A stretch of DNA of 64,000 bases, taken from contig CAVVLJ010000017.1 of assembly GCA_963749075.1 (NCBI GenBank), forward strand, positions 640,001 to 704,000, given 5' to 3'. The notes beneath the pieces are model-generated. The model searched no databases, had not been told where the DNA came from, and was given only the letters and a program-made list of their open reading frames with translations. Within the stretch, counting starts at the first letter, position 1. Each line of letters starts with the position of its first letter. The translations under genes were made by a program, and so were the position numbers. This stretch comes from an uncultured Pseudomonadota bacterium. GTDB taxonomy: Bacteria; Pseudomonadota; Alphaproteobacteria; JACZXZ01. Shown piece after piece: positions 13,198 to 22,830 of the stretch.

Positions 13198-13477
13198 GGG
13201 GCGGCGGCGCGCCGCCGCCGCAGTTTTTTCGCGCGGAGGCAAATTTGCAGTTGAGGCTGCGGCGGGAATCGACGACGATCCGACCCTAGCCCTGATGCCA
13301 GGGCGGGACGGACGATCCGAGCGATGAGCCTGACCCTCGTGTGGACCGCAAAGGCCACAGCACCGCGACAAGCTGCTCCGACATGCCGACTGCGAGCAAC
13401 GACCCCGAGTGCTACGCCCGCGCGATGCGGGCGCAAGCGACGGCGGCTCTGACCATCGCCATGCCCAGGGCCGGCGC

Positions 13478-15043
13478 ATGACCGCGCATATCATCATCGT
13501 CGACCGGCGGGGCGACTTCAAATGGGACGAGGCCGGCCACCCGGTGGCGACCGCGCGCGAGTACCTCTCGCGCCCGGAGGCCTTCATGTCGCGCTACCCG
13601 CGCATCATCAACCTCTGCCGCGACTACGACTACATGAGCTACGGCTACTACTGCTCGCTCCTTGCCGAGGCGCGCGGCGAGCGCGTCATCCCCTCGGTCT
13701 CGACCATCCTCGACCTCTCGCGCAAGTCGATCTACGGCCTCGCCCTCGACGAGCTCGACGAGCTCCTCGAGAAGACCGCCAAGAAGGACGCCAAAGGCAC
13801 CTCCGGGTCCTTCGCCCTCCACGTCTTCTTCGGCATGCCCGAGGAGGAGCGCTACCAGGACCTGGCGCACCAGATCTTCGACCTCTTCCGCTGCCCGCTC
13901 CTCAAGGTGCAGATCAACCCGGGCGAGAAGTGGCGCGTCACCTCGATCGAGCCGGTGCCGCTCAACGAGGTCAAGCCCGAGCAGGAGCCCCTCTTCGTGC
14001 GGGCGCTCGAGGCCTACACAAGGGTCGCCTGGCGGCCGCCCAAGGCCAAGCCGCCGCCGCGCTTCTATCTCGCCGTGCTGCACAGCCCGCAGGAGGCCCT
14101 CCCGCCCTCCTCGCCGCGCACGCTGCAGAAGATCGTCAAGGTCGGCGAGCAGATGAACATCGAGGTCGAGCTCGTCGAGAAGAAGGACTACCACCGCATC
14201 GCCGAGTTCGACGCGCTCTTCATCCGCGAGACCACGGCGCTCGACCACCACACCTACCGCTTCGCCAAGAAGGCGGAATACGAGGGCATGGTGGTGATCG
14301 ACGACTCCACCTCGATCCTCCGCTGCACCAACAAGGTCTATTTGGCCGAGCTCCTGCGCTCGCACCGCGTGCCGACGCCGCGCACCCTCGTCGTCGACCG
14401 CGCGCGCATGGGCGAGATCGAGGCGGAGTTCGGCTATCCCCTCGTGCTCAAGATACCCGACGGCTCGTTTTCGCGCGGCATCCACAAGGTGACGGGCAAG
14501 CAGGAGCTCAAGGACCTCTCGGCCGAGCTCTTCCGCCGCTCCGAGCTCATCATCGCCCAGGAGTTCGTGCCGACCCAGTTCGACTGGCGCATCGGCATCC
14601 TCAATGGCCGCGCCGTCTACGCCTGCCAGTATTTCATGTCGCGCAACCACTGGCAGATCGTGAAGCACAGCGCGAGCGGCCGCTTCTCCGAGGGCGGCTG
14701 CAAGACGCTCGCGGTCGAGGAGGCGCCGCCATCCGTGGTCGATGCCGCGGTCAAGGCGGCGCGCCTCATCGGCGACGGCCTCTACGGCGTCGACCTCAAG
14801 GAGACCGAGCGCGGACCCGTGGTCATCGAGATCAACGACAACGCCAGCATCGACACGGGCTACGAGGACACCGTGCTCAAGGACGAGCTCTACCGCATCA
14901 TCCTCGGCGAGTTCGTCCGCCGCCTCGAGGCGCAGATGGAGCCGATCGGGGTCAATGGCGGGGAGGCGCCCCGCCCGGCAGTCACGAGTGTCGCGAGCGC
15001 GATCGAGCCCGCGCTGCCGTTTGAGGTGGGGAGGAAGGAGTGA
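13478..15043 (+). CDS. RimK-family ATP-grasp ligase with RLAN N-terminal domain
   Basis: IINLCRDYDYMSYGYYCSLLAEARG (RLAN), CTNKVYL, VLKIPDGSFSRG, QEFVPTQFDWRIG, GLYGVDLK, IEINDN. Confidence 0.9.
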   Translation: MTAHIIIVDRRGDFKWDEAGHPVATAREYLSRPEAFMSRYPRIINLCRDYDYMSYGYYCSLLAEARGERVIPSVSTILDLSRKSIYGLALDELDELLEKTAKKDAKGTSGSFALHVFFGMPEEERYQDLAHQIFDLFRCPLLKVQINPGEKWRVTSIEPVPLNEVKPEQEPLFVRALEAYTRVAWRPPKAKPPPRFYLAVLHSPQEALPPSSPRTLQKIVKVGEQMNIEVELVEKKDYHRIAEFDALFIRETTALDHHTYRFAKKAEYEGMVVIDDSTSILRCTNKVYLAELLRSHRVPTPRTLVVDRARMGEIEAEFGYPLVLKIPDGSFSRGIHKVTGKQELKDLSAELFRRSELIIAQEFVPTQFDWRIGILNGRAVYACQYFMSRNHWQIVKHSASGRFSEGGCKTLAVEEAPPSVVDAAVKAARLIGDGLYGVDLKETERGPVVIEINDNASIDTGYEDTVLKDELYRIILGEFVRRLEAQMEPIGVNGGEAPRPAVTSVASAIEPALPFEVGRKE

Positions 15044-15230: not shown

Positions 15231-16169
15231 GTGGACATGGCATTTGCAGCCACCGGCAAGGGCCGCTCAGATCGCGACGCGATCATGGCTTGCGAGGACA
15301 ATCTCGCATTCATGCGCCGGCTGCCGAGGGAGTCGATGCAATTGATCGTGACGTCCCCGCCCTACAACATCGGCAAGGCTTACGAAGCCAAGTCGCCGCT
15401 CGATGCTTATGTCCAGGCGCAGGCGGAGGTGATCGCCGAGTGCGTGCGCCTGCTACACCCGCGCGGCTCGCTCTGCTGGCAAGTCGGGAACCACGTCCAG
15501 AAGGGAGAAATCTTCCCGCTCGACATCGTGCTCTACCCCCTATTCCGAGGACATGGCCTCAGACTGCGCAACCGCATCGTCTGGCATTTCGAGCATGGCC
15601 TGCACTGCTCCAAGCGGCTCTCCGGCCGCTACGAGACCATCATGTGGTTCACCAAGTCGGACGATTACGTCTTCAACCTTGACGCTGTCAGGGTTCCCTC
15701 GAAGTACCCTGGAAAGAAATATTTCAAGGGACCGAAGGTAGGCCAACTTTCCGGCAATCCGCTCGGCAAGAATCCGAGCGATGTGTGGATATTTCCGAAC
15801 GTAAAGAACAATCACGTCGAGAAGACGATCCACCCTTGCCAATTCCCGATCGAGCTTGTCGAACGTCTCGTGTTGTCGCTGACGAATCCGGGTGATGCGG
15901 TGTTTGATCCATGCATGGGTGTCGGGTCCACCGTCGTCGGTGCGCTCAAGCACGGCCGCGCCGGCTATGGCTGCGACATCGTACAAGAATACGTCGATGT
16001 CGCGTGGCGTCGCGTCCGTAAGCTTCGCGCCGGCACGCTTAGAACGCGCCCCATGGATAGGCCCGTCTATGATCCAGCCAAACCCCACGGCGGCCAAAGA
16101 GAACCCCGTCACGCCCGCCGGCAAAAGTCCCTCTTGTCGATCGTGGCGGAACTCGAGCGTGGCCTATGA
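15231..16169 (+). CDS. site-specific DNA methyltransferase, beta class N4-cytosine type (M.BglII/BstYI-like)
   Basis: LIVTSPPYN catalytic motif before HPCQFP and VFDPCMGVGST SAM motif; ATGA-coupled to the REase. Confidence 0.9.
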   Translation: MDMAFAATGKGRSDRDAIMACEDNLAFMRRLPRESMQLIVTSPPYNIGKAYEAKSPLDAYVQAQAEVIAECVRLLHPRGSLCWQVGNHVQKGEIFPLDIVLYPLFRGHGLRLRNRIVWHFEHGLHCSKRLSGRYETIMWFTKSDDYVFNLDAVRVPSKYPGKKYFKGPKVGQLSGNPLGKNPSDVWIFPNVKNNHVEKTIHPCQFPIELVERLVLSLTNPGDAVFDPCMGVGSTVVGALKHGRAGYGCDIVQEYVDVAWRRVRKLRAGTLRTRPMDRPVYDPAKPHGGQREPRHARRQKSLLSIVAELERGL

Positions 16170-16777
16170 GACTCGTCACCCGATATTCGCATCTGAATGG
16201 GCTGGAGTATCTTAAGGTTCATAAGCCGAAGCTTTGGCGGGAGATACGCAGCGTCATCTCGCGGGTCGATGCGGCCACTTGCCGGACCAAGGTCTCGAAA
16301 GAGGTGCGCACGAAGGACAAGCTGCTGTACTCGCCGATCGAGCTGAACAAGGCGGTGAAGGGCGGCTTCAGGGCGCACGGCTGGAGCGAAAGCCGCACGT
16401 CTTATTGGGTTACCTCGGACGCGCGGCTCATCCGCAAGACGATGCACATGACGCCGGCCCAGCAGAAGGCCAAGATCGAAGCGTCGGGTCGCACCCCGAT
16501 TTACTCCTTTAACCAAACCGACTTCGTGAAAGAGCGCGTCGCCGTCGAGGTGCAGTTCGGCAAGTACGCCTTTGTCGCCTACGACCTCTTCGTGAAGCAC
16601 ATGGCATTCTTTGTCGGCGACGTAATCGACGTAGGGATCGAAATTCTGCCCATGAAGGAGTTGCAACAAGAGATGTCGTCCGGCGTCGGCTATTACGAGG
16701 GCGAGCTTTACAACCTAATTCGAGAAGGAAGGAGCATTCCGGCGGTGCCCCTTGTTCTGATCGGGGTTGCTGCTTAG
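16166..16777 (+). CDS. BglII/BstYI family type II restriction endonuclease
   Basis: SPIELNK, QTDFVKERVAVEVQFGKY (D...E-x-Q active site), IDVGIEILP. Confidence 0.88.
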   Translation: MRLVTRYSHLNGLEYLKVHKPKLWREIRSVISRVDAATCRTKVSKEVRTKDKLLYSPIELNKAVKGGFRAHGWSESRTSYWVTSDARLIRKTMHMTPAQQKAKIEASGRTPIYSFNQTDFVKERVAVEVQFGKYAFVAYDLFVKHMAFFVGDVIDVGIEILPMKELQQEMSSGVGYYEGELYNLIREGRSIPAVPLVLIGVAA

Positions 16778-16885: not shown

Positions 16886-18034
16886 CTACCGACGTATGGC
16901 CTTCCGACGGGCTTTCGGCCGCAGCACCAGCATTAATTCGTCCGCGTGGTGGCGCGCCGCTCGGCCAGACAGTTCGTCTCCGTCCGTCCGTGTCCCACCA
17001 AGGGTACTGAACGTGCTCTTTACCCTACGTTCTTCTAGCCGGAAGTGCCGCTGTGCTATTTCGCGCACAAGATTTCCTGAAAGGCCATTAGAACAATCGT
17101 AGTTCGGGAATGTAACTATACCCGTTGCACCGACACACGATAATGTGCGCAGCAAGTCTTCGAGTGCGCCTGCGGATTCGCCTTTGAGACTGTATTTTGA
17201 GCGTGGCCGGTGCCGCGGAGCGGGATATCGTCCCACACCTGATACTGCGCCGCACTTGCCGACCGCTATTGTTTCGAGGACGTGATAGAATCGGCTGTAG
17301 TGAACCCCTGAATAGGGCGGATCGATAAAGACGAGGTCGCCGGCCCGGAGCGTGGGGACTATTCTATTTGCATCTGACCGCTCAGCATGTCCCTGTCGTT
17401 GCGCAAACTCCAGAGAAATCTGTTCGAATGCTTCCCGCGTCACGTCGGCAATATCACGCTTCCACGCGTCCGCTATAAACCGCTTTGCGGTTCTTGTCGG
17501 TTGAAATGGCTGCGCGGTGTGTCCCGGCGCGGCAGCCGACTTGCTAGCGGCATGGATGAGCGCCGCAAGAGCTACGGTTTTGTCCGGCTTTCGCGTTGGC
17601 AGACTTGCTCTCAACGCGTCAATCCAAGTTGCTTGTTCCGGACTAAAGTAATGTCCACCATACGCTTGGGTGACGACTCCCGATTGCGCAGCGCTCCATT
17701 TGCGATAGTCGGCGACAACAGAACGCGTGAGTCTCTCAGACCAAGGTACAGAGACCTTGTCTAACCATGCCTGCGCGGAGGCATGCCATTTCCTCCACAC
17801 TGCTCTCGCGCCGAGCGCGGCTACGCGACCGATAACGGCCTCAGCCAATACCACGCTATATTGTTGAAGATCGACAGCCAACACCGGAAGGGCAAAGCGC
17901 CGAGCCGCAAACGAAGCTACAGCGCCTGAGCCAGCGAATAAGTCCACAAAACGATCCGCCGAAGCGAGCTCCTTTTCAAGAAGGAGCCCGAGGCCGTTCC
18001 GCAGCATCGCCCGTTTGGACCCCATATATTTCAA
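16886..18034 (-). CDS. DNA adenine methyltransferase (D12/Dam class, alpha motif order)
   Basis: MKYMGSK (TTG start), FVDLFAGSGAV, LVFIDPPYSGVHYSRFYHVLETI. Confidence 0.88.
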   Translation of the reverse strand: MKYMGSKRAMLRNGLGLLLEKELASADRFVDLFAGSGAVASFAARRFALPVLAVDLQQYSVVLAEAVIGRVAALGARAVWRKWHASAQAWLDKVSVPWSERLTRSVVADYRKWSAAQSGVVTQAYGGHYFSPEQATWIDALRASLPTRKPDKTVALAALIHAASKSAAAPGHTAQPFQPTRTAKRFIADAWKRDIADVTREAFEQISLEFAQRQGHAERSDANRIVPTLRAGDLVFIDPPYSGVHYSRFYHVLETIAVGKCGAVSGVGRYPAPRHRPRSKYSLKGESAGALEDLLRTLSCVGATGIVTFPNYDCSNGLSGNLVREIAQRHFRLEERRVKSTFSTLGGTRTDGDELSGRAARHHADELMLVLRPKARRKAIRR

Positions 18035-18057
18035 GTCTCACCTATACCCAACCGCCT

Positions 18058-19406
18058 TCAGCTTGGAGTCAAACTCCAAACGGCTACGCGCTCGCAACTG
18101 CCAAGCCCGACAAGCGCTTGACCGAGCTCACTTCCAACGCGGAAGAATGTCTGCTCCTCCCGTGGATGCCTGTTTTGAAAGATGTCGAGATCCCGCAAGA
18201 GCGGCTCTATATCCGCCCAGAGATCAAGTAGATCGTCCGCGCCCTTTGCATTATCCCACAGTCCACGCGATTGGCCCATACGCTCCCACCAGAAAGCTAT
18301 GGCATCGGACGTGAATCCCACTGATTGAAAGAGATCCGCGATCGAGCCCGATGCGACACGCAACAAGAGCGTCGCCCGCGCAACGATGGCGGAATGGCTA
18401 TTCTCCCTCGTTCCTGGCGAGATTCTTCGAGAATTCGAAAATGCTCAGGTTATCGGGGGCATTATTGCGGCAAAGGAACTTAAGCCATCGTTCTGCCGCG
18501 TCCTTGGAGAAACCCTGATTTTCCACAACCCTGGACGCGAGTTGCCGAAATCCTGTTGGATCGCGCGCGGCCGAAACGCCATTTTGTCCCTTGAAAATGG
18601 ATTCTACCGCCAAGCGCAGAATATGGCGATCAATCGTGTCAAACCGAGAGGGCTGGGAGGGCTCCAGAGCGAGCCAGATGTCTCGTGCGAACGTGAGCGT
18701 CTTGGATGGATCAAGACACCATGCATCCGGCATCCCGTCCGGACGGTAGCTCGAACTCGTTTCGAGCTTCTCTATCCTCCGTAGGCAATTGAAGATCCAT
18801 GCCCCATTGCAGAAACCATTCCTTGGCCTGAGGTGCGGCAACACTGCCACCGCCCAGCGGTGCAAGCCAGTCGTCCAACGTACGACCGTTAGGTCGTACG
18901 ATCGAGGCGAACAGATCACCAGACATAGGTTGTGCGCACCAATATTCCAGGCAGTCCCAAACAAATACATGGGTCGATGATTGGGCTCTCAATGCGGCCA
19001 CCGAATTGGGGGCGTCAATGACGAAATGGTACCTGTCAAAGACGCCCACGCCAGTTGTCGCGAGAAGCGACATCGCAGCTCGAAGCTCGGCGTAATAGGC
19101 TAGGTGGCGCGCCCTGTGGGGATCGCCGCGTAAGAGGGAGGAGATCGCCTTTCCGAGGTAACTCCACCCATCTGTACAATGCAGTAGACAGCTAGCTGCG
19201 ATGTATTGCGACAATTGACGTGGCCTTTTAAGGGCACCGGCTTTGCTTTCGAAAGCTATCTTCTTCTTTGTATCGATCACATACCAGTTTCGCTCACCGA
19301 CCCATCTTGAGGTTTTTGCAAAGTGCCTCAAGCCCGCCAGGGTCTTTTCGACATTTTTGCGCTTCAGCGATTGGACCGCGCCAAAATTGTGAGGGCTAAG
19401 TGACAT
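18058..19406 (-). pseudogene. HEPN-like domain protein (about 450 aa), split by two +1 frameshifts (pseudogene or sequencing error)
   Basis: ORFs 18711-19406, 18398-~18755 and 18058-~18420 join after removing one base each near 18755 and 18423; motifs ARHLAYYAELRAAMSLLA, SSTH and repaired RNESSY. Confidence 0.65.
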
Positions 19407-19408
19407 AG

Positions 19409-20934
19409 TTATGCCGGCCGATGCAAGCGTTTGGCAGCTTTGCCGACGTCACCTTGGCAAGCGCGGAGATGTTGGAGGAGCTGTGCCCGCAGCTCCTTGT
19501 AACCGCTGCTTCCTCTGAATACGAGCTTCTGTCGGCGCAGGTCTTCAGAAATGTTCGGGGCGGAGCTCGTGCGCCAGTCGAAAGTGGCAAGCCCGATCGC
19601 AATACTCTCCAGGAATGCTGCCACAGGCTCATAGCAATGGATTTCAGCGCCACAGTAACCGCACCCGCGTCGCTTGCTGAAGCCTTTTTGTCGAGTTGCC
19701 ATGTATCAAGCCGGAGATGGGGCGCCATAACAAAGCACAAATCATTGACTACGTGCAGGAAACCGCGCACACCCTGGTCGGTGACGATGAGCGAGCAGTT
19801 ACCGTAGAATGCTGGATCTTCTGATTTCGTGATCGAGACGCGTTGCCGCTCTGCATCCGCCCGCAATTCGACGGCCCAGGGCTCTTCGACGGCATGAACA
19901 GCTTTGGAGAGTTTCTGCCAAGCGAAAATTAGAAAAGCCGCCTGCTGCGCACGGCTCCAACCGAGAACTTCTCCACCTTCTCGAAGTCGGGAACCGAACA
20001 ACCCCCCGATTTTTGTGCCACGACCATCCCAGGATCGTACAAGCGTGGCCATTAGCGCCTTTATCCACGCCGATTGCGTCACCCAGCTGATGTGACGCTC
20101 GCCTAGCATGTTTATTCGATCGTACCAGGGGCTGTCGGAGTGCGACCAAAGAGCCTCCGTCAGCTCCTGCGACCGCGTCTCCCGATAGATCGGATGCCCT
20201 TCCGCCTTGTCCAGCCAATCCTCGGCCCTGAGCAAAGGGTACAAGTCGAACGCGAGGCTCGGGTTTATTCGCTTCGGCTTGATATTGATGGTCCAAAAAA
20301 GATACGCCTGCCAGCTCACGTCTAGTCCGCTGAACGCCACGACTGGCACCTCGAATCCGGCGGCGGTGGAGTCCTCTTCGAATGCCCAAAGCCGATGTTG
20401 GCCGTCAATTACTTCCAAAGGCGGCACCGCGGATGGCCGCCAAGTTTTTGTCCAATTCGAATATGGCAGTGCAATGGTACAAGAGCCCTCGTCGTCATGC
20501 ACTGTGAGGAGGTCATGCTCCGCCACTTTGCCACCTGGGCGTACGTCCGATTTGTGAAGAATGTTGATCACAATAGCAGTTGGCAACCAACCCGGCTTTC
20601 GCAGATCGTAGAACTCAGTCGTCTTGCGCTTTGCCGTACTCAGTGTGGACCAAGGATACCCGAATTCAACGAAGCGCGAGATTTCCTCAGATCGTTCTGG
20701 ATCATGTTGTCGCTGGATGCCGAGGTCGGCAGCGCGTGGCGTGACACCAGATGTCTGACGGCGCACGATTCCACACAGACTGCGAAGCTCCTGTGCAGAA
20801 AGCGAGAACAGATAGAAATGCGGCGATGGCTTGGCTCGATGGTGGGCGGAATCATACTGCACGCGATTCCAGGCCTTGAGCCATTGATGAACCTTAATGA
20901 CGGGGATACGCCGACGTTCTTCAGGCTTAGCCAT
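19409..20934 (-). CDS. DGQHR domain protein (DndB/ParB-Srx fold), one frameshift near 19633
   Basis: LGIQRQHD.ERSEEI, WLPTAIVIN, EVIDGQHRLWAF, YLFWTINIKPKRINPSLAFDL; C-terminal part continues in frame 19409-19702. Confidence 0.85.
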
Positions 20935-21128: not shown

Positions 21129-21482
21129 TCATGCCTCCCGCTTTGCTCTCGGCGACACCGCGAGCCCGAGAAATACGAGCACGGCCCGGTTGAGCCGCAG
21201 GATATCCTCGTCGTCCAGGCGTCCGAGACGCGCGCCGAGCTTCGATTTTGGCACGGTGGTGATCTTGTCCACCATTAGGCGGCAGCTCTCGCGCAGTCCG
21301 TTTCGCTCGTTCGGCGCAACGCGCAGGCGGAACAAGGGCGCTTCTGTCTCGTCGCTGGTGAAGGCGCAGATGGTGATGGAGTCCGTTCCGTCGAAGCTGT
21401 CGTCCTGCAGGATGACGACCGGACGCGGTTTGCCCGCATAGCCCTTGCCGCCCGAGACGGTCCAGACGTCTCCCCGCCTCAT
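21129..21482 (-). CDS. PemK/MazF family toxin
   Basis: MRRGDVWTV..GKPRPVVILQDD...SITICAFTS...NGLRESCRLMVDKITTV. Confidence 0.9.
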   Translation of the reverse strand: MRRGDVWTVSGGKGYAGKPRPVVILQDDSFDGTDSITICAFTSDETEAPLFRLRVAPNERNGLRESCRLMVDKITTVPKSKLGARLGRLDDEDILRLNRAVLVFLGLAVSPRAKREA

Positions 21483-21704
21483 TCATCGCCCCGATCCGAC
21501 ACCGCGTCGATGAAGGCCTGATCCTCGCGCGCGCGTGCGCTGGCAGCCACGGCGCGCGACTGGCGATGGGCCTGTCGCGCGGAAGGCGGGCGAGCGCACG
21601 TCGGGCACCCAGATCTGGATGGGGCGCAGACCCTGCCCGCGCAGCCGCTCGCGATGTTCTCGCACCTTCACGCGGGAGGGCTTCGGCTGAGATGTCGAGG
21701 TCAT
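21479..21704 (-). pseudogene. MazE-like antitoxin (DUF3018), apparent +1 frameshift near 21575
   Basis: [31 protein letters not shown], continuing in another frame as [12 protein letters not shown]...[14 protein letters not shown]; ATGA overlap with the toxin. Confidence 0.8.
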
Positions 21705-21807: not shown

Positions 21808-21855
21808 TTGCCCCACCCCGCCCCCACCCGCTATACTGCTCCTTTAATGACCGCC
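21808..21855 (+). promoter_or_regulatory. pyrB promoter (TTGCCC-N18-TATACT), near-leaderless; contains direct repeat copy 2 (21833-21855)
   Basis: -10 TATACT ends 9 nt before ATG 21847; no SD sequence. Confidence 0.55.
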
Positions 21856-22830
21856 TTAGCCCCTCTCCCCGTGTTGCGCTTCCCGCACCGGCATCTCCTC
21901 GGCATCGAGGGGTTGACTGCCGAGGAGATCACCTTCCTCCTCGACCTCGCCGAGTCCTACGTCGAGCAGAACCGCCAGGCCGACAAGAAGAGCGCCATCC
22001 TGCGCGGCCGTACGGTCATCAACCTCTTCTTCGAGAACTCGACGCGCACGCGCACCTCCTTCGAGCTGGCGGGGAAGCGCCTGGGCGGCGACGTGATCAA
22101 CATGCAGGTCGCGGCCAGCAGCATCAAGAAGGGCGAGACGCTCATCGACACGGCGATGACGCTCAACGCCATGCACCCGGACGTGCTGGTGGTGCGCCAC
22201 TTCGACTCGGGCGCCGTCAAGCTCCTCTCCGAGAAGGTCAACTGCTCGGTCATCAACGGCGGCGACGGCAGCCACGAGCACCCGACGCAAGCGCTCCTCG
22301 ACGCCCTCACCATCCGCCGCCGCAAGGGCCGCATCCGCGGCCTCGCCGTCGCCATCTGCGGCGACATCCTCCATAGCCGGGTCGCGCGCTCCAACATCTC
22401 GCTCCTCAACATCATGGGAGCCAAGGTGCGGGTGGTGGCACCCCCCACCCTCCTTCCCGCCGCCGTCGAGCGGCTCGGCGTCGAGGTCTTCTACGACATG
22501 CGGAACGGCCTCAAGGACGTCGACGTGGTGATGATGCTGCGCCTCCAGACCGAGCGCATGCACGGCTCCTTCGTGCCCTCGATCCGCGAGTACTTCCACT
22601 TCTTCGGCCTCGATTACGCCAAGCTCGAGGTGGCCAAGAAGGACGCCATGATCATGCACCCGGGTCCCATGAACCGCGGCGTCGAGATCGACAGCGAGGT
22701 GGCCGACGACATCGGCCGCAGCGCCATCCACGAGCAGGTCGAGATGGGGGTCGCCGTGCGCATGGCCTGCCTCGATTCCCTGACGCGCCGCGGCCAGCGC
22801 GGGAACGAGGGCGACGGAGCCGAGGCATGA
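21847..22830 (+). CDS. pyrB: aspartate carbamoyltransferase catalytic subunit
   Basis: [31 protein letters not shown]. Confidence 0.98.

Follow-up and report, generated by a model that had tools for sequence, protein, structure and literature searches.

According to Makarova et al. (2013), DGQHR and COG1479 proteins accompany DNA-modification systems, and in DndB a ParB-like domain is combined with a HEPN domain. DndB was shown experimentally to repress the dnd genes dndCDE (PMC4507180) and DpdB is an ATPase needed for base insertion, that is, for the modification step (PMC12839542), whereas on the restriction side DndI, a DUF262 protein with a DGQQR motif and an HNH domain, nicks unmarked DNA and is released when phosphorothioate DNA stimulates its ATPase (PMC11662687), with SspE described as the DndI equivalent in Ssp systems (PMC10853773). 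For the MAE_28990 family (PF18737), Anantharaman et al. (2013) predicted operons in which a ParB-superfamily nuclease accompanies a HEPN-type protein and a DNA methylase (PMC3710099). Here we describe a three-gene cassette in a 64,000-nucleotide stretch of DNA from an uncultured alphaproteobacterium (contig CAVVLJ010000017.1, positions 640,001 to 704,000; hereafter the window), encoding a DndB-family DGQHR protein (gene 1), a partner protein without a family model (gene 2) and a D12-class N6-adenine DNA methyltransferase (gene 3). Genes 1 and 2 form a conserved, tightly coupled pair that has spread horizontally with interchangeable DNA-modification enzymes, and we put at about one in two the probability that the cassette is an immune system resembling restriction–modification (R-M), in which the methylase marks self DNA and a complex of the DGQHR protein and its partner reads the mark and acts as effector.

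Comparison with these systems shows both kinship and distance. Gene 1 has in common with DndB of the dndBCDE operons (PF14072/TIGR03187) the N-terminal ParB/Srx-like DGQHR domain and the first place in an operon with a DNA-modification enzyme, and in one relative (locus L031) the pair itself takes the dndB position; unlike DndB it is about 508 residues long with a different C-terminal half, matches only positions 13–159 of the 338 in the DndB profile, has a coupled 447-residue partner, which dnd operons are without, and is usually accompanied by an adenine methylase rather than by DndCDE. As in DndI and SspE, a ParB-fold nucleotide switch is tied to a DNA-modification module, but the motif is DGQHR instead of DGQQR, two proteins stand in place of one, and the mark would mostly be N6-methyladenine (m6A). 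The fused HNH or DUF1524 domain of DndI, SspE and GmrSD has no counterpart here, neither domain being matched in Pfam by gene 1, gene 2 or 31 homologues of each.

The MAE_28990 operons have the same logic as the cassette; gene 2, however, is twice as long as the MAE_28990 proteins (about 200–270 residues) and has neither their RNxxAHG-type motif nor profile similarity to them, and the ParB partner there is DUF262-type where that of the cassette is DndB-type. In 11 of the 12 PF18737 loci fetched, the HEPN gene is immediately preceded by a same-strand gene of about 350–375 residues (177 in L062), and the products of these genes (L053–L063) we take, from an N-terminal motif rather than from a family search, to be DUF262-type ParB-like proteins. 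The ParB and HEPN pair of these loci is analogous but unrelated to genes 1 and 2. A further relative in design, PD-lambda-5, is an experimentally active compact methyltransferase cassette that its authors call a compacted 'RM+Abi' system (Vassallo et al., 2022; PMC9519451); its PADLOC model matches none of genes 1–3 at E ≤ 0.01. The first-pass annotation of the window had recognised no named system, and we agree: no model in PADLOC (2023 copy) matches gene 1 or gene 2, and neither pair nor triad is described in the literature searched, where supplementary tables of relevant papers may list the family unnamed. What is new, within modification-linked ParB-NTPase (nucleoside triphosphatase) systems, is an uncharacterised partner family together with an interchangeable marker enzyme.

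A coupled gene pair with an interchangeable modification enzyme

Scanning with patterns drawn from gene 2, one genome per species, yielded 64 stretches, 49 of which encode a relative of gene 2. These 49 loci span Alpha- and Gammaproteobacteria, Binatota, Actinomycetota, Planctomycetota, Chloroflexota, Acidobacteriota, Armatimonadota, Myxococcota and Spirochaetota, and include the archaeon Methanoregula. In 47 of them gene 2 is immediately preceded by a homologue of gene 1 (cut by contig ends in L009 and L034, and carrying an internal deletion in L043), the two exceptions being a 65-residue fragment beside a DDE transposase (L049) and a locus with remnants of both genes (L050). Coupling is tight: among the 35 loci in which both open reading frames were called, the distance from the stop of gene 1 to the start of gene 2 is between −8 and +5 nucleotides in 33, and the two genes overlap by 4 nucleotides in 11.

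The third place, by contrast, is not fixed. Gene 3 of the window scores 56.6 bits against the D12 family PF02086 (cut-off 22) and matches the PADLOC model MTase_II PDLC03257 with E 4e-24, and the motifs that had been noted in it, FAGSG (motif I) and DPPY (motif IV), are indeed read in its translation; homologues 44–63% identical to it follow gene 2 directly in 25 of the 49 loci. Across the 47 loci with the pair, a DNA-modification gene adjoins in 45. The commonest is the window's own type, a long D12 methylase of about 380 residues directly downstream (25 loci, with a further probable case in L034 at a contig end), followed by a Dam-type enzyme of about 290 residues (13 loci: 11 downstream on the same strand, one split and on the opposite strand in L020, one upstream in L024), an MT-A70 enzyme (L011, L021 and L043) and dnd genes (L031, L036 and L032); only L002 and L039 have no modification gene within 6 kb. 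In L031 the pair is followed by DndC (676 bits), DndD (664 bits) and DndE (131 bits); in L036 its companions are a DndD-like ATPase, a restriction helicase of Dnd systems and a DndA-like desulfurase, and in L032 with a desulfurase, after which the contig ends. Since the third place is thus filled by three types of adenine methylase, unrelated or only distantly related, or by dnd genes, the conserved core is the pair of DGQHR protein and partner. The first-pass annotation had proposed a three-gene operon and had made its proposal depend on the homologues occurring together as a triad: genes 1 and 2 are linked and a modification gene does adjoin them, as the counts above show, and what falls away is the fixed identity of the methylase.

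Three of these loci contain additional genes worth recording. The whole arrangement in L031 (L031:135-12260) runs dnd-associated protein 4, pair, DndC, a Uma2-family nuclease-like gene, DndD and DndE, with a second DndD-like ATPase and an Rpn-family nuclease upstream. In L033 (L033:5980-8394) gene 2 and the methylase appear as one 805-residue fusion; since the frame changes inside the gene 2 tail, at the same place, and the genome is metagenome-assembled, the fusion is most likely an assembly artefact. A second DGQHR protein, of 765 residues, directly follows the cassette methylase in L023 (L023:6950-9244), and DGQHR matches occur likewise at L033:9493-9862. This protein has only the ParB-like domain in common with gene 1 (hhalign 97.9%) and may be a relative in fused form, served by the one methylase; as a clue to gene 2 it was rejected, having no similarity to it.

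A tree of concatenated genes 1 and 2 (34 rows, 15 loci with broken, cut or uncalled genes being excluded) joins different phyla, archaea included, on close branches. Partner type requires 6 changes on this tree against a mean of 14.3 when labels are shuffled, a value as low being reached in none of 200 shuffles; one locus, L007, is labelled 'none' in this count although its methylase is Dam-type, as in its sister clade. Long D12 enzymes occur throughout the tree; Dam and dnd partners are each confined essentially to a single clade. A tree that cuts across phyla with partner types clustered on it points to transfer of the cassette as a unit, with occasional swaps of partner.

The surroundings of the loci agree with such mobility. 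Five of 72,556 plasmid records carry the cassette: four 30,952-bp Zymomonas plasmids and one Rhizobium tumorigenes megaplasmid, whose annotation goes no further than a DGQHR domain-containing protein, a hypothetical protein and a methylase, the last given as Dam-family or as DNA adenine methylase. The Rhizobium copy (pRt932) adjoins TniB/Mu-type transposition genes, and other loci adjoin integrases, transposases, and Mrr, Fic and RiboL-PSP-HEPN genes. On the Zymomonas mobilis plasmid pZZM405 the cassette (L051, 4514-11805), here with a Dam-family methylase, lies about 1.9 kb upstream of DUF4433 and macro-domain genes, which make up a DarT/DarG-like pair. The plasmid measures 31 kb, and its host strain is genetically tractable. 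The methylome of Zymomonas ZM4 comprises CAGN4CTG, GAAGN7TCC and GANTC only, none of them ascribed to a plasmid Dam-type enzyme (PMC8432527); we set it aside as evidence either way, the presence of the 30,952-bp plasmid in that strain not being established. Gene 2 was found neither in 60 relatives of the host, 5 of the same genus among them, nor in 400 genomes of the phylum, and it has no match among 50,697 phage records.

The DGQHR protein and its partner

Gene 1, whose motif EVIDGQHRL stands in the translation as previously read, belongs to the DGQHR domain family TIGR03187 (66.3 bits, cut-off 58.85). Against the DndB family PF14072 the window copy scores 25.4 bits, under the gathering score of 29.1, and the intact homologue in L002 scores 31.4; all 31 intact homologues match this family, each over roughly its first half (profile positions ~13–159). 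The phosphorothioation-associated family TIGR04172 (DGQHR protein 1) is matched at 61.5 bits, far under its cut-off of 450, and the Dnd-linked homologues in L031 and L036 score no differently (62–65 bits). In the structural model (predicted local distance difference test, pLDDT, 81), residues ~37–240 adopt a ParB/Srx fold whose matches are the ParB N-terminal domain of pNOB8 (5.8), sulfiredoxin (5.5), KorB (4.6), SspE (3.7) and BrxU (3.1); the remainder is a helical C-terminal half without a clear structural match. Foldseek against the PDB gave nothing for gene 1 at E ≤ 1e-3, and a profile search of solved structures was likewise empty. At the extreme C-terminus two residues stand out among the 31 homologues, R483 (conserved in 30) and H489 (in 27), which form an R-x5-H with the spacing of the HEPN signature; structure comparison, Pfam and hhalign returned no HEPN fold or family for this region, the hhalign probability of gene 1 against HEPN_MAE_28990 being 0.13%.

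Gene 2 is 82% identical to an intact 448-residue relative (P0001). With its N-terminal 231 residues as query, 795 homologues of 406–2000 residues, almost all of 440–460, were retrieved, every one unnamed and none with a Pfam domain, and a profile of 31 homologues recovered 1205 cluster representatives out of 1.84 billion at E ≤ 1e-3 (807 at E ≤ 1e-30). The three pieces of gene 2 in the window have no match in Pfam, NCBIfam or PADLOC at E ≤ 0.01, and a protein atlas placed it in unnamed clusters only, the nearest named protein, YaaC, at 0.78 lying below the level of a lead.

The predicted structure of gene 2 (pLDDT 88.2, predicted template modelling score 0.90) is an all-helical bundle with one small sheet, and HEPN domains account for 6 of its ten best structural matches. 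Sequence comparison does not follow: 31 homologues searched in Pfam at E ≤ 10 matched no HEPN family, giving chance matches only (DUF4398 the commonest, in 3 of 31), and hhalign against an alignment of 11 HEPN_MAE_28990 proteins gave a probability of 0.06%. The helix at 336–361 contains invariant R343 and R349, an R-x5-R without a conserved histidine, placed at the HEPN motif position from the aligned range rather than from a residue-level alignment; some accepted HEPN families are likewise without the Rx4-6H motif (PMC3710099). The fold matches are suggestive, not proof, of a HEPN-like helical core in gene 2; the earlier description of this gene as HEPN-like is thus suggested by the predicted fold and not shown by sequence.

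Whether the two proteins bind one another was addressed by complex prediction, which weakly suggests that they do. The pair scored 0.55 (runs of 0.65, 0.55 and 0.00) against 0.00 for the best of 3 controls, with partner pLDDT of at least 83 and agreement between runs of at least 0% of contacts. Of 157 solved complexes 116 pass the mark set for this score, as do 2 of 215 mismatched pairs; those that pass with 0.60 or less are only 18 of the 157 solved complexes, and both of the mismatched pairs.

Readings of the cassette

A coupled pair that travels with any DNA-marking enzyme is what would be expected of the reading and acting half of an R-M-like system. We picture the linked modification enzyme, a D12 methylase here and Dam-type, MT-A70 or Dnd genes elsewhere, as marking the cell's own DNA, and genes 1 and 2, with their coupled reading frames, as acting together. 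The ParB/Srx-fold domain of gene 1, with its DGQHR nucleotide-binding motif, would be a switch that reads the mark in the manner of DndI and SspE: marked DNA would stimulate nucleoside triphosphate hydrolysis and release, and on unmarked DNA the complex would stay engaged. The effector, gene 2 and possibly the C-terminal R-x5-H helix of gene 1, would then cut nucleic acid, either RNA, leading to growth arrest, or DNA, leaving nicks. Observation covers the linkage and tight coupling of the genes, the exchange of modification partner, the horizontal spread and the folds; binding of the two proteins, mark reading and effector chemistry are inferred. Relative to DndI, the usual mark would have become m6A, the switch would lie in gene 1 and the effector in gene 2, perhaps with a heterodimeric HEPN-like site. 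The first-pass annotation had arrived at an R-M-like system, possibly abortive, with the DGQHR protein as sensor or gate and a HEPN effector; its proposal is supported in part, a conserved unit without a name being what we find, and a fixed methylase and HEPN membership by sequence being what we do not. Were the cassette immune, it would represent a widespread yet rare family (the 1205 gene 2 cluster representatives extend across many bacterial phyla and Methanoregula), and an effector without a recognisable nuclease, combined with an interchangeable marker, would be a natural experiment on uncoupling the 'reader' of a mark from its 'writer'.

Several observations weigh against the immune reading. 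We found no experimental report of protection or toxicity for any cassette member in the literature searched. Pfam and structure searches recognise no nuclease domain in either protein of the pair: for gene 1 the C-terminal half is without a Pfam family, as it is in the 31 homologues; gene 2 carries R-x5-R in place of the canonical Rx4-6H, has nothing in the PDB at E ≤ 1e-3 by Foldseek (the top rows being membrane proteins), and in a profile search of solved structures has one chance match, at E 0.34. The restriction-side precedents, DndI, SspE and GmrSD, have DGQQR with a fused HNH domain instead, and the DGQHR proteins characterised so far are the repressor DndB and the modification ATPase DpdB. 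Two loci, L002 and L039, have an intact pair and no methylase within 6 kb, so that a pair attacking unmarked DNA there would need a marker encoded elsewhere; and in L031 the pair sits exactly where dndB would stand in a dndBCDE operon.

The same observations keep alive a regulatory alternative, since DndB (PMC4507180) and DpdB (PMC12839542) both work on the modification side. The pair might be a DndB-like regulator or an accessory driven by nucleoside triphosphates, setting the extent, timing or direction of the linked enzyme's activity either through repression of the operon or through action on DNA beside that enzyme, which would make the cassette an epigenetic module without restriction. 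Gene 1 does belong to the DndB family (by PF14072 in all 31 homologues and by TIGR03187 above cut-off), the pair precedes dndC, dndD and dndE in L031 and is similarly placed in L036, L031 has no other DGQHR match and has nuclease candidates of its own, and a regulator would be at ease both with loci lacking an adjacent methylase and with the missing nuclease domain. Yet some 950 strongly conserved residues (mean column identity 53–56% over genes 1 and 2) are much for controlling a lone methylase; the same pair accompanies four unrelated kinds of modification enzyme, which fits a reader of marks better than a partner of enzymes; the cassette is rare, patchy and borne on islands or plasmids, as defence genes are; and the top structural matches of gene 2 are HEPN-like. 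We regard this alternative as rather doubtful, though it bears directly on whether DndB-type DGQHR proteins are regulators, NTPases or effectors. A classical type II-like system, with gene 2 as an unrecognised sequence-specific endonuclease matching the methylase and gene 1 as its helper, seems quite unlikely. It would account for an operon that includes a methylase, as 42 of 47 loci do, and for the many invariant acidic and basic residues of gene 2 (D79, E107, D204, D211 and R215 among them), and restriction endonucleases are very diverse and often without a family model; but a fixed endonuclease specificity is hard to square with a single gene 1 and gene 2 lineage in which the methylase family has changed two or more times and phosphorothioation has been taken up once, and the predicted fold of gene 2, whose best matches are HEPN, has no PD-(D/E)XK, HNH or GIY-YIG core. 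No restriction endonuclease model of PADLOC or Pfam matches gene 1 or gene 2 either, and the neighbouring BglII-family enzyme belongs with a PF01555 methylase of its own and not with gene 3, in line with the earlier statement that gene 3 has no cognate endonuclease.

That the cassette is a system already named, or a set of chance neighbours, we consider very improbable. The partial match of gene 1 to the Dnd-associated TIGR04172 stands at 61.5 bits against a cut-off of 450, and no DndC was found across the whole 96%-complete host genome (dpd genes were not searched for), in which gene 1 is the only DGQHR protein (six-frame genome search, 64 bits). The ParB nuclease, HEPN and methylase operons of the MAE_28990 family (PMC3710099) offer a precedent for the layout; MAE_28990 proteins, however, follow DUF262-type genes and are far shorter than gene 2, to which they bear no similarity by hhalign, and PADLOC has no match for genes 1 and 2. 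Linkage of the two genes in 47 of 49 loci excludes chance. Within the immune reading itself, a more specific form strikes us as unlikely but worth stating: the pair may be a modification-agnostic reader, in which a DndB-type NTPase switch reads m6A or phosphorothioate alike and unmarked DNA activates a composite HEPN-type RNase to which gene 1 contributes its R-x5-H tail and gene 2 its R-x5-R helix. Epigenetic state would then directly gate an RNA-cutting abortive response, and the original role of the long-puzzling DndB family would be hinted at.

The island and the state of this copy

The cassette of the window is horizontally acquired. Its three co-oriented genes, separated by 2 nucleotides (19408-19407) and 23 nucleotides (18057-18035), lie at the coordinates first reported, in a stretch of low-GC DNA (0.55–0.60 over ~15.0 to 21.5 kb, against 0.66–0.74 on either side and about 70% for the genome), flanked by a BglII/BstYI-type R-M pair on one side and a MazEF module on the other, which confirms the setting that the first-pass annotation had described. 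No tRNA gene lies at 10–26 kb of the window. The host genome measures 5.49 Mb in 23 contigs; in five same-genus genomes the window's flanking genes are absent from the 1.5-kb flanks of pyrB, flanks too short on contigs too fragmented for a conclusion. To judge by sequence, the PF01555 methylase and the BglII-family endonuclease form an intact type II R-M pair.

Features of the low-GC island and its borders (positions in the window)
Feature	Position	Strand	Remarks
rimK-like gene	13409-15043	+	one border of the low-GC stretch
PF01555 DNA methylase	15231-16169	+	overlaps the next endonuclease gene by 4 nucleotides
BglII/BstYI-family endonuclease	16166-16777	+	203 residues; PADLOC REase_II PDLC03442 over 202/203 positions, E 9.7e-94
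Gene 3, D12-class N6-adenine DNA methyltransferase	18034-16886	-	382 residues, intact
Gene 2, partner protein without a family model	19406-18058	-	~447 residues; three frames in the window sequence
Gene 1, DndB-family DGQHR (ParB/Srx-fold) protein	20934-19409	-	~508 residues when intact
PemK/MazF toxin	21129-21482	-	at the end of the island near pyrB
MazE-like antitoxin	21483-21704	-	next to PemK/MazF, at the pyrB end of the island
pyrB	21808-22830	+	other border of the low-GC stretch

The first-pass annotation had called for the frameshifts of the operon to be repaired. Placed by tblastn and alignment against intact relatives, three breaks of one base each are present in the window sequence, and only one of them, in gene 1, looks real. 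Both breaks in gene 2 are insertions: an extra T at 18754/18755, whose removal leaves GAGTC, which fits GANTC, and an extra A at 18423/18424, whose removal leaves AGATCT, a BglII/BstYI-type site. A soil-metagenome run (X1), short-read to judge by adapter-like loose ends and containing 95% of the sampled words of the stretch, has a 953-nucleotide contig (depth 4.5) that is otherwise identical to the window minus one base at 18423 and one at 18754, and in which gene 2 is one whole frame of 447/448 residues; gene 2 is therefore probably intact in the organism. The X1 contig lacks both insertions, and both fall in GANTC and AGATCT motifs, which cover about 2% of the stretch (a post-hoc observation); an assembly error is thus the probable origin of each.

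The remaining break, a −1 frame change near 19633 (19630-19636) where a base is missing and a run of C is one short relative to homologues, removes the conserved C-terminal ~74 residues of gene 1 (FDWR...FRGSxGYKELR-x5-H), four invariant positions included. A second X1 contig of 1348 nucleotides (depth 6.5), covering 19446-20793, aligns without a gap to the window, so this frameshift is common to both data sets and is probably real. The copy in the window is consequently likely disabled, and gene 3 is likely left as an orphan methylase.

Long-read basecallers tend to err at methylated motifs, and the location of the two insertions inside AGATCT and GANTC hints at basecalling errors linked to methylation; were that so, a CcrM-type enzyme and the island's BglII-type methylase would be active. 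A practical lesson follows, in that two of three apparent pseudogene lesions are probable assembly errors within methylation motifs. A further run (X2) covers 11 of 30 bins, none of the three frameshift sites among them, and has C>T at window position 17811, inside the methylase gene (one contig, depth 5), so that a second sample from this study contains the cassette in a closely related strain variant.

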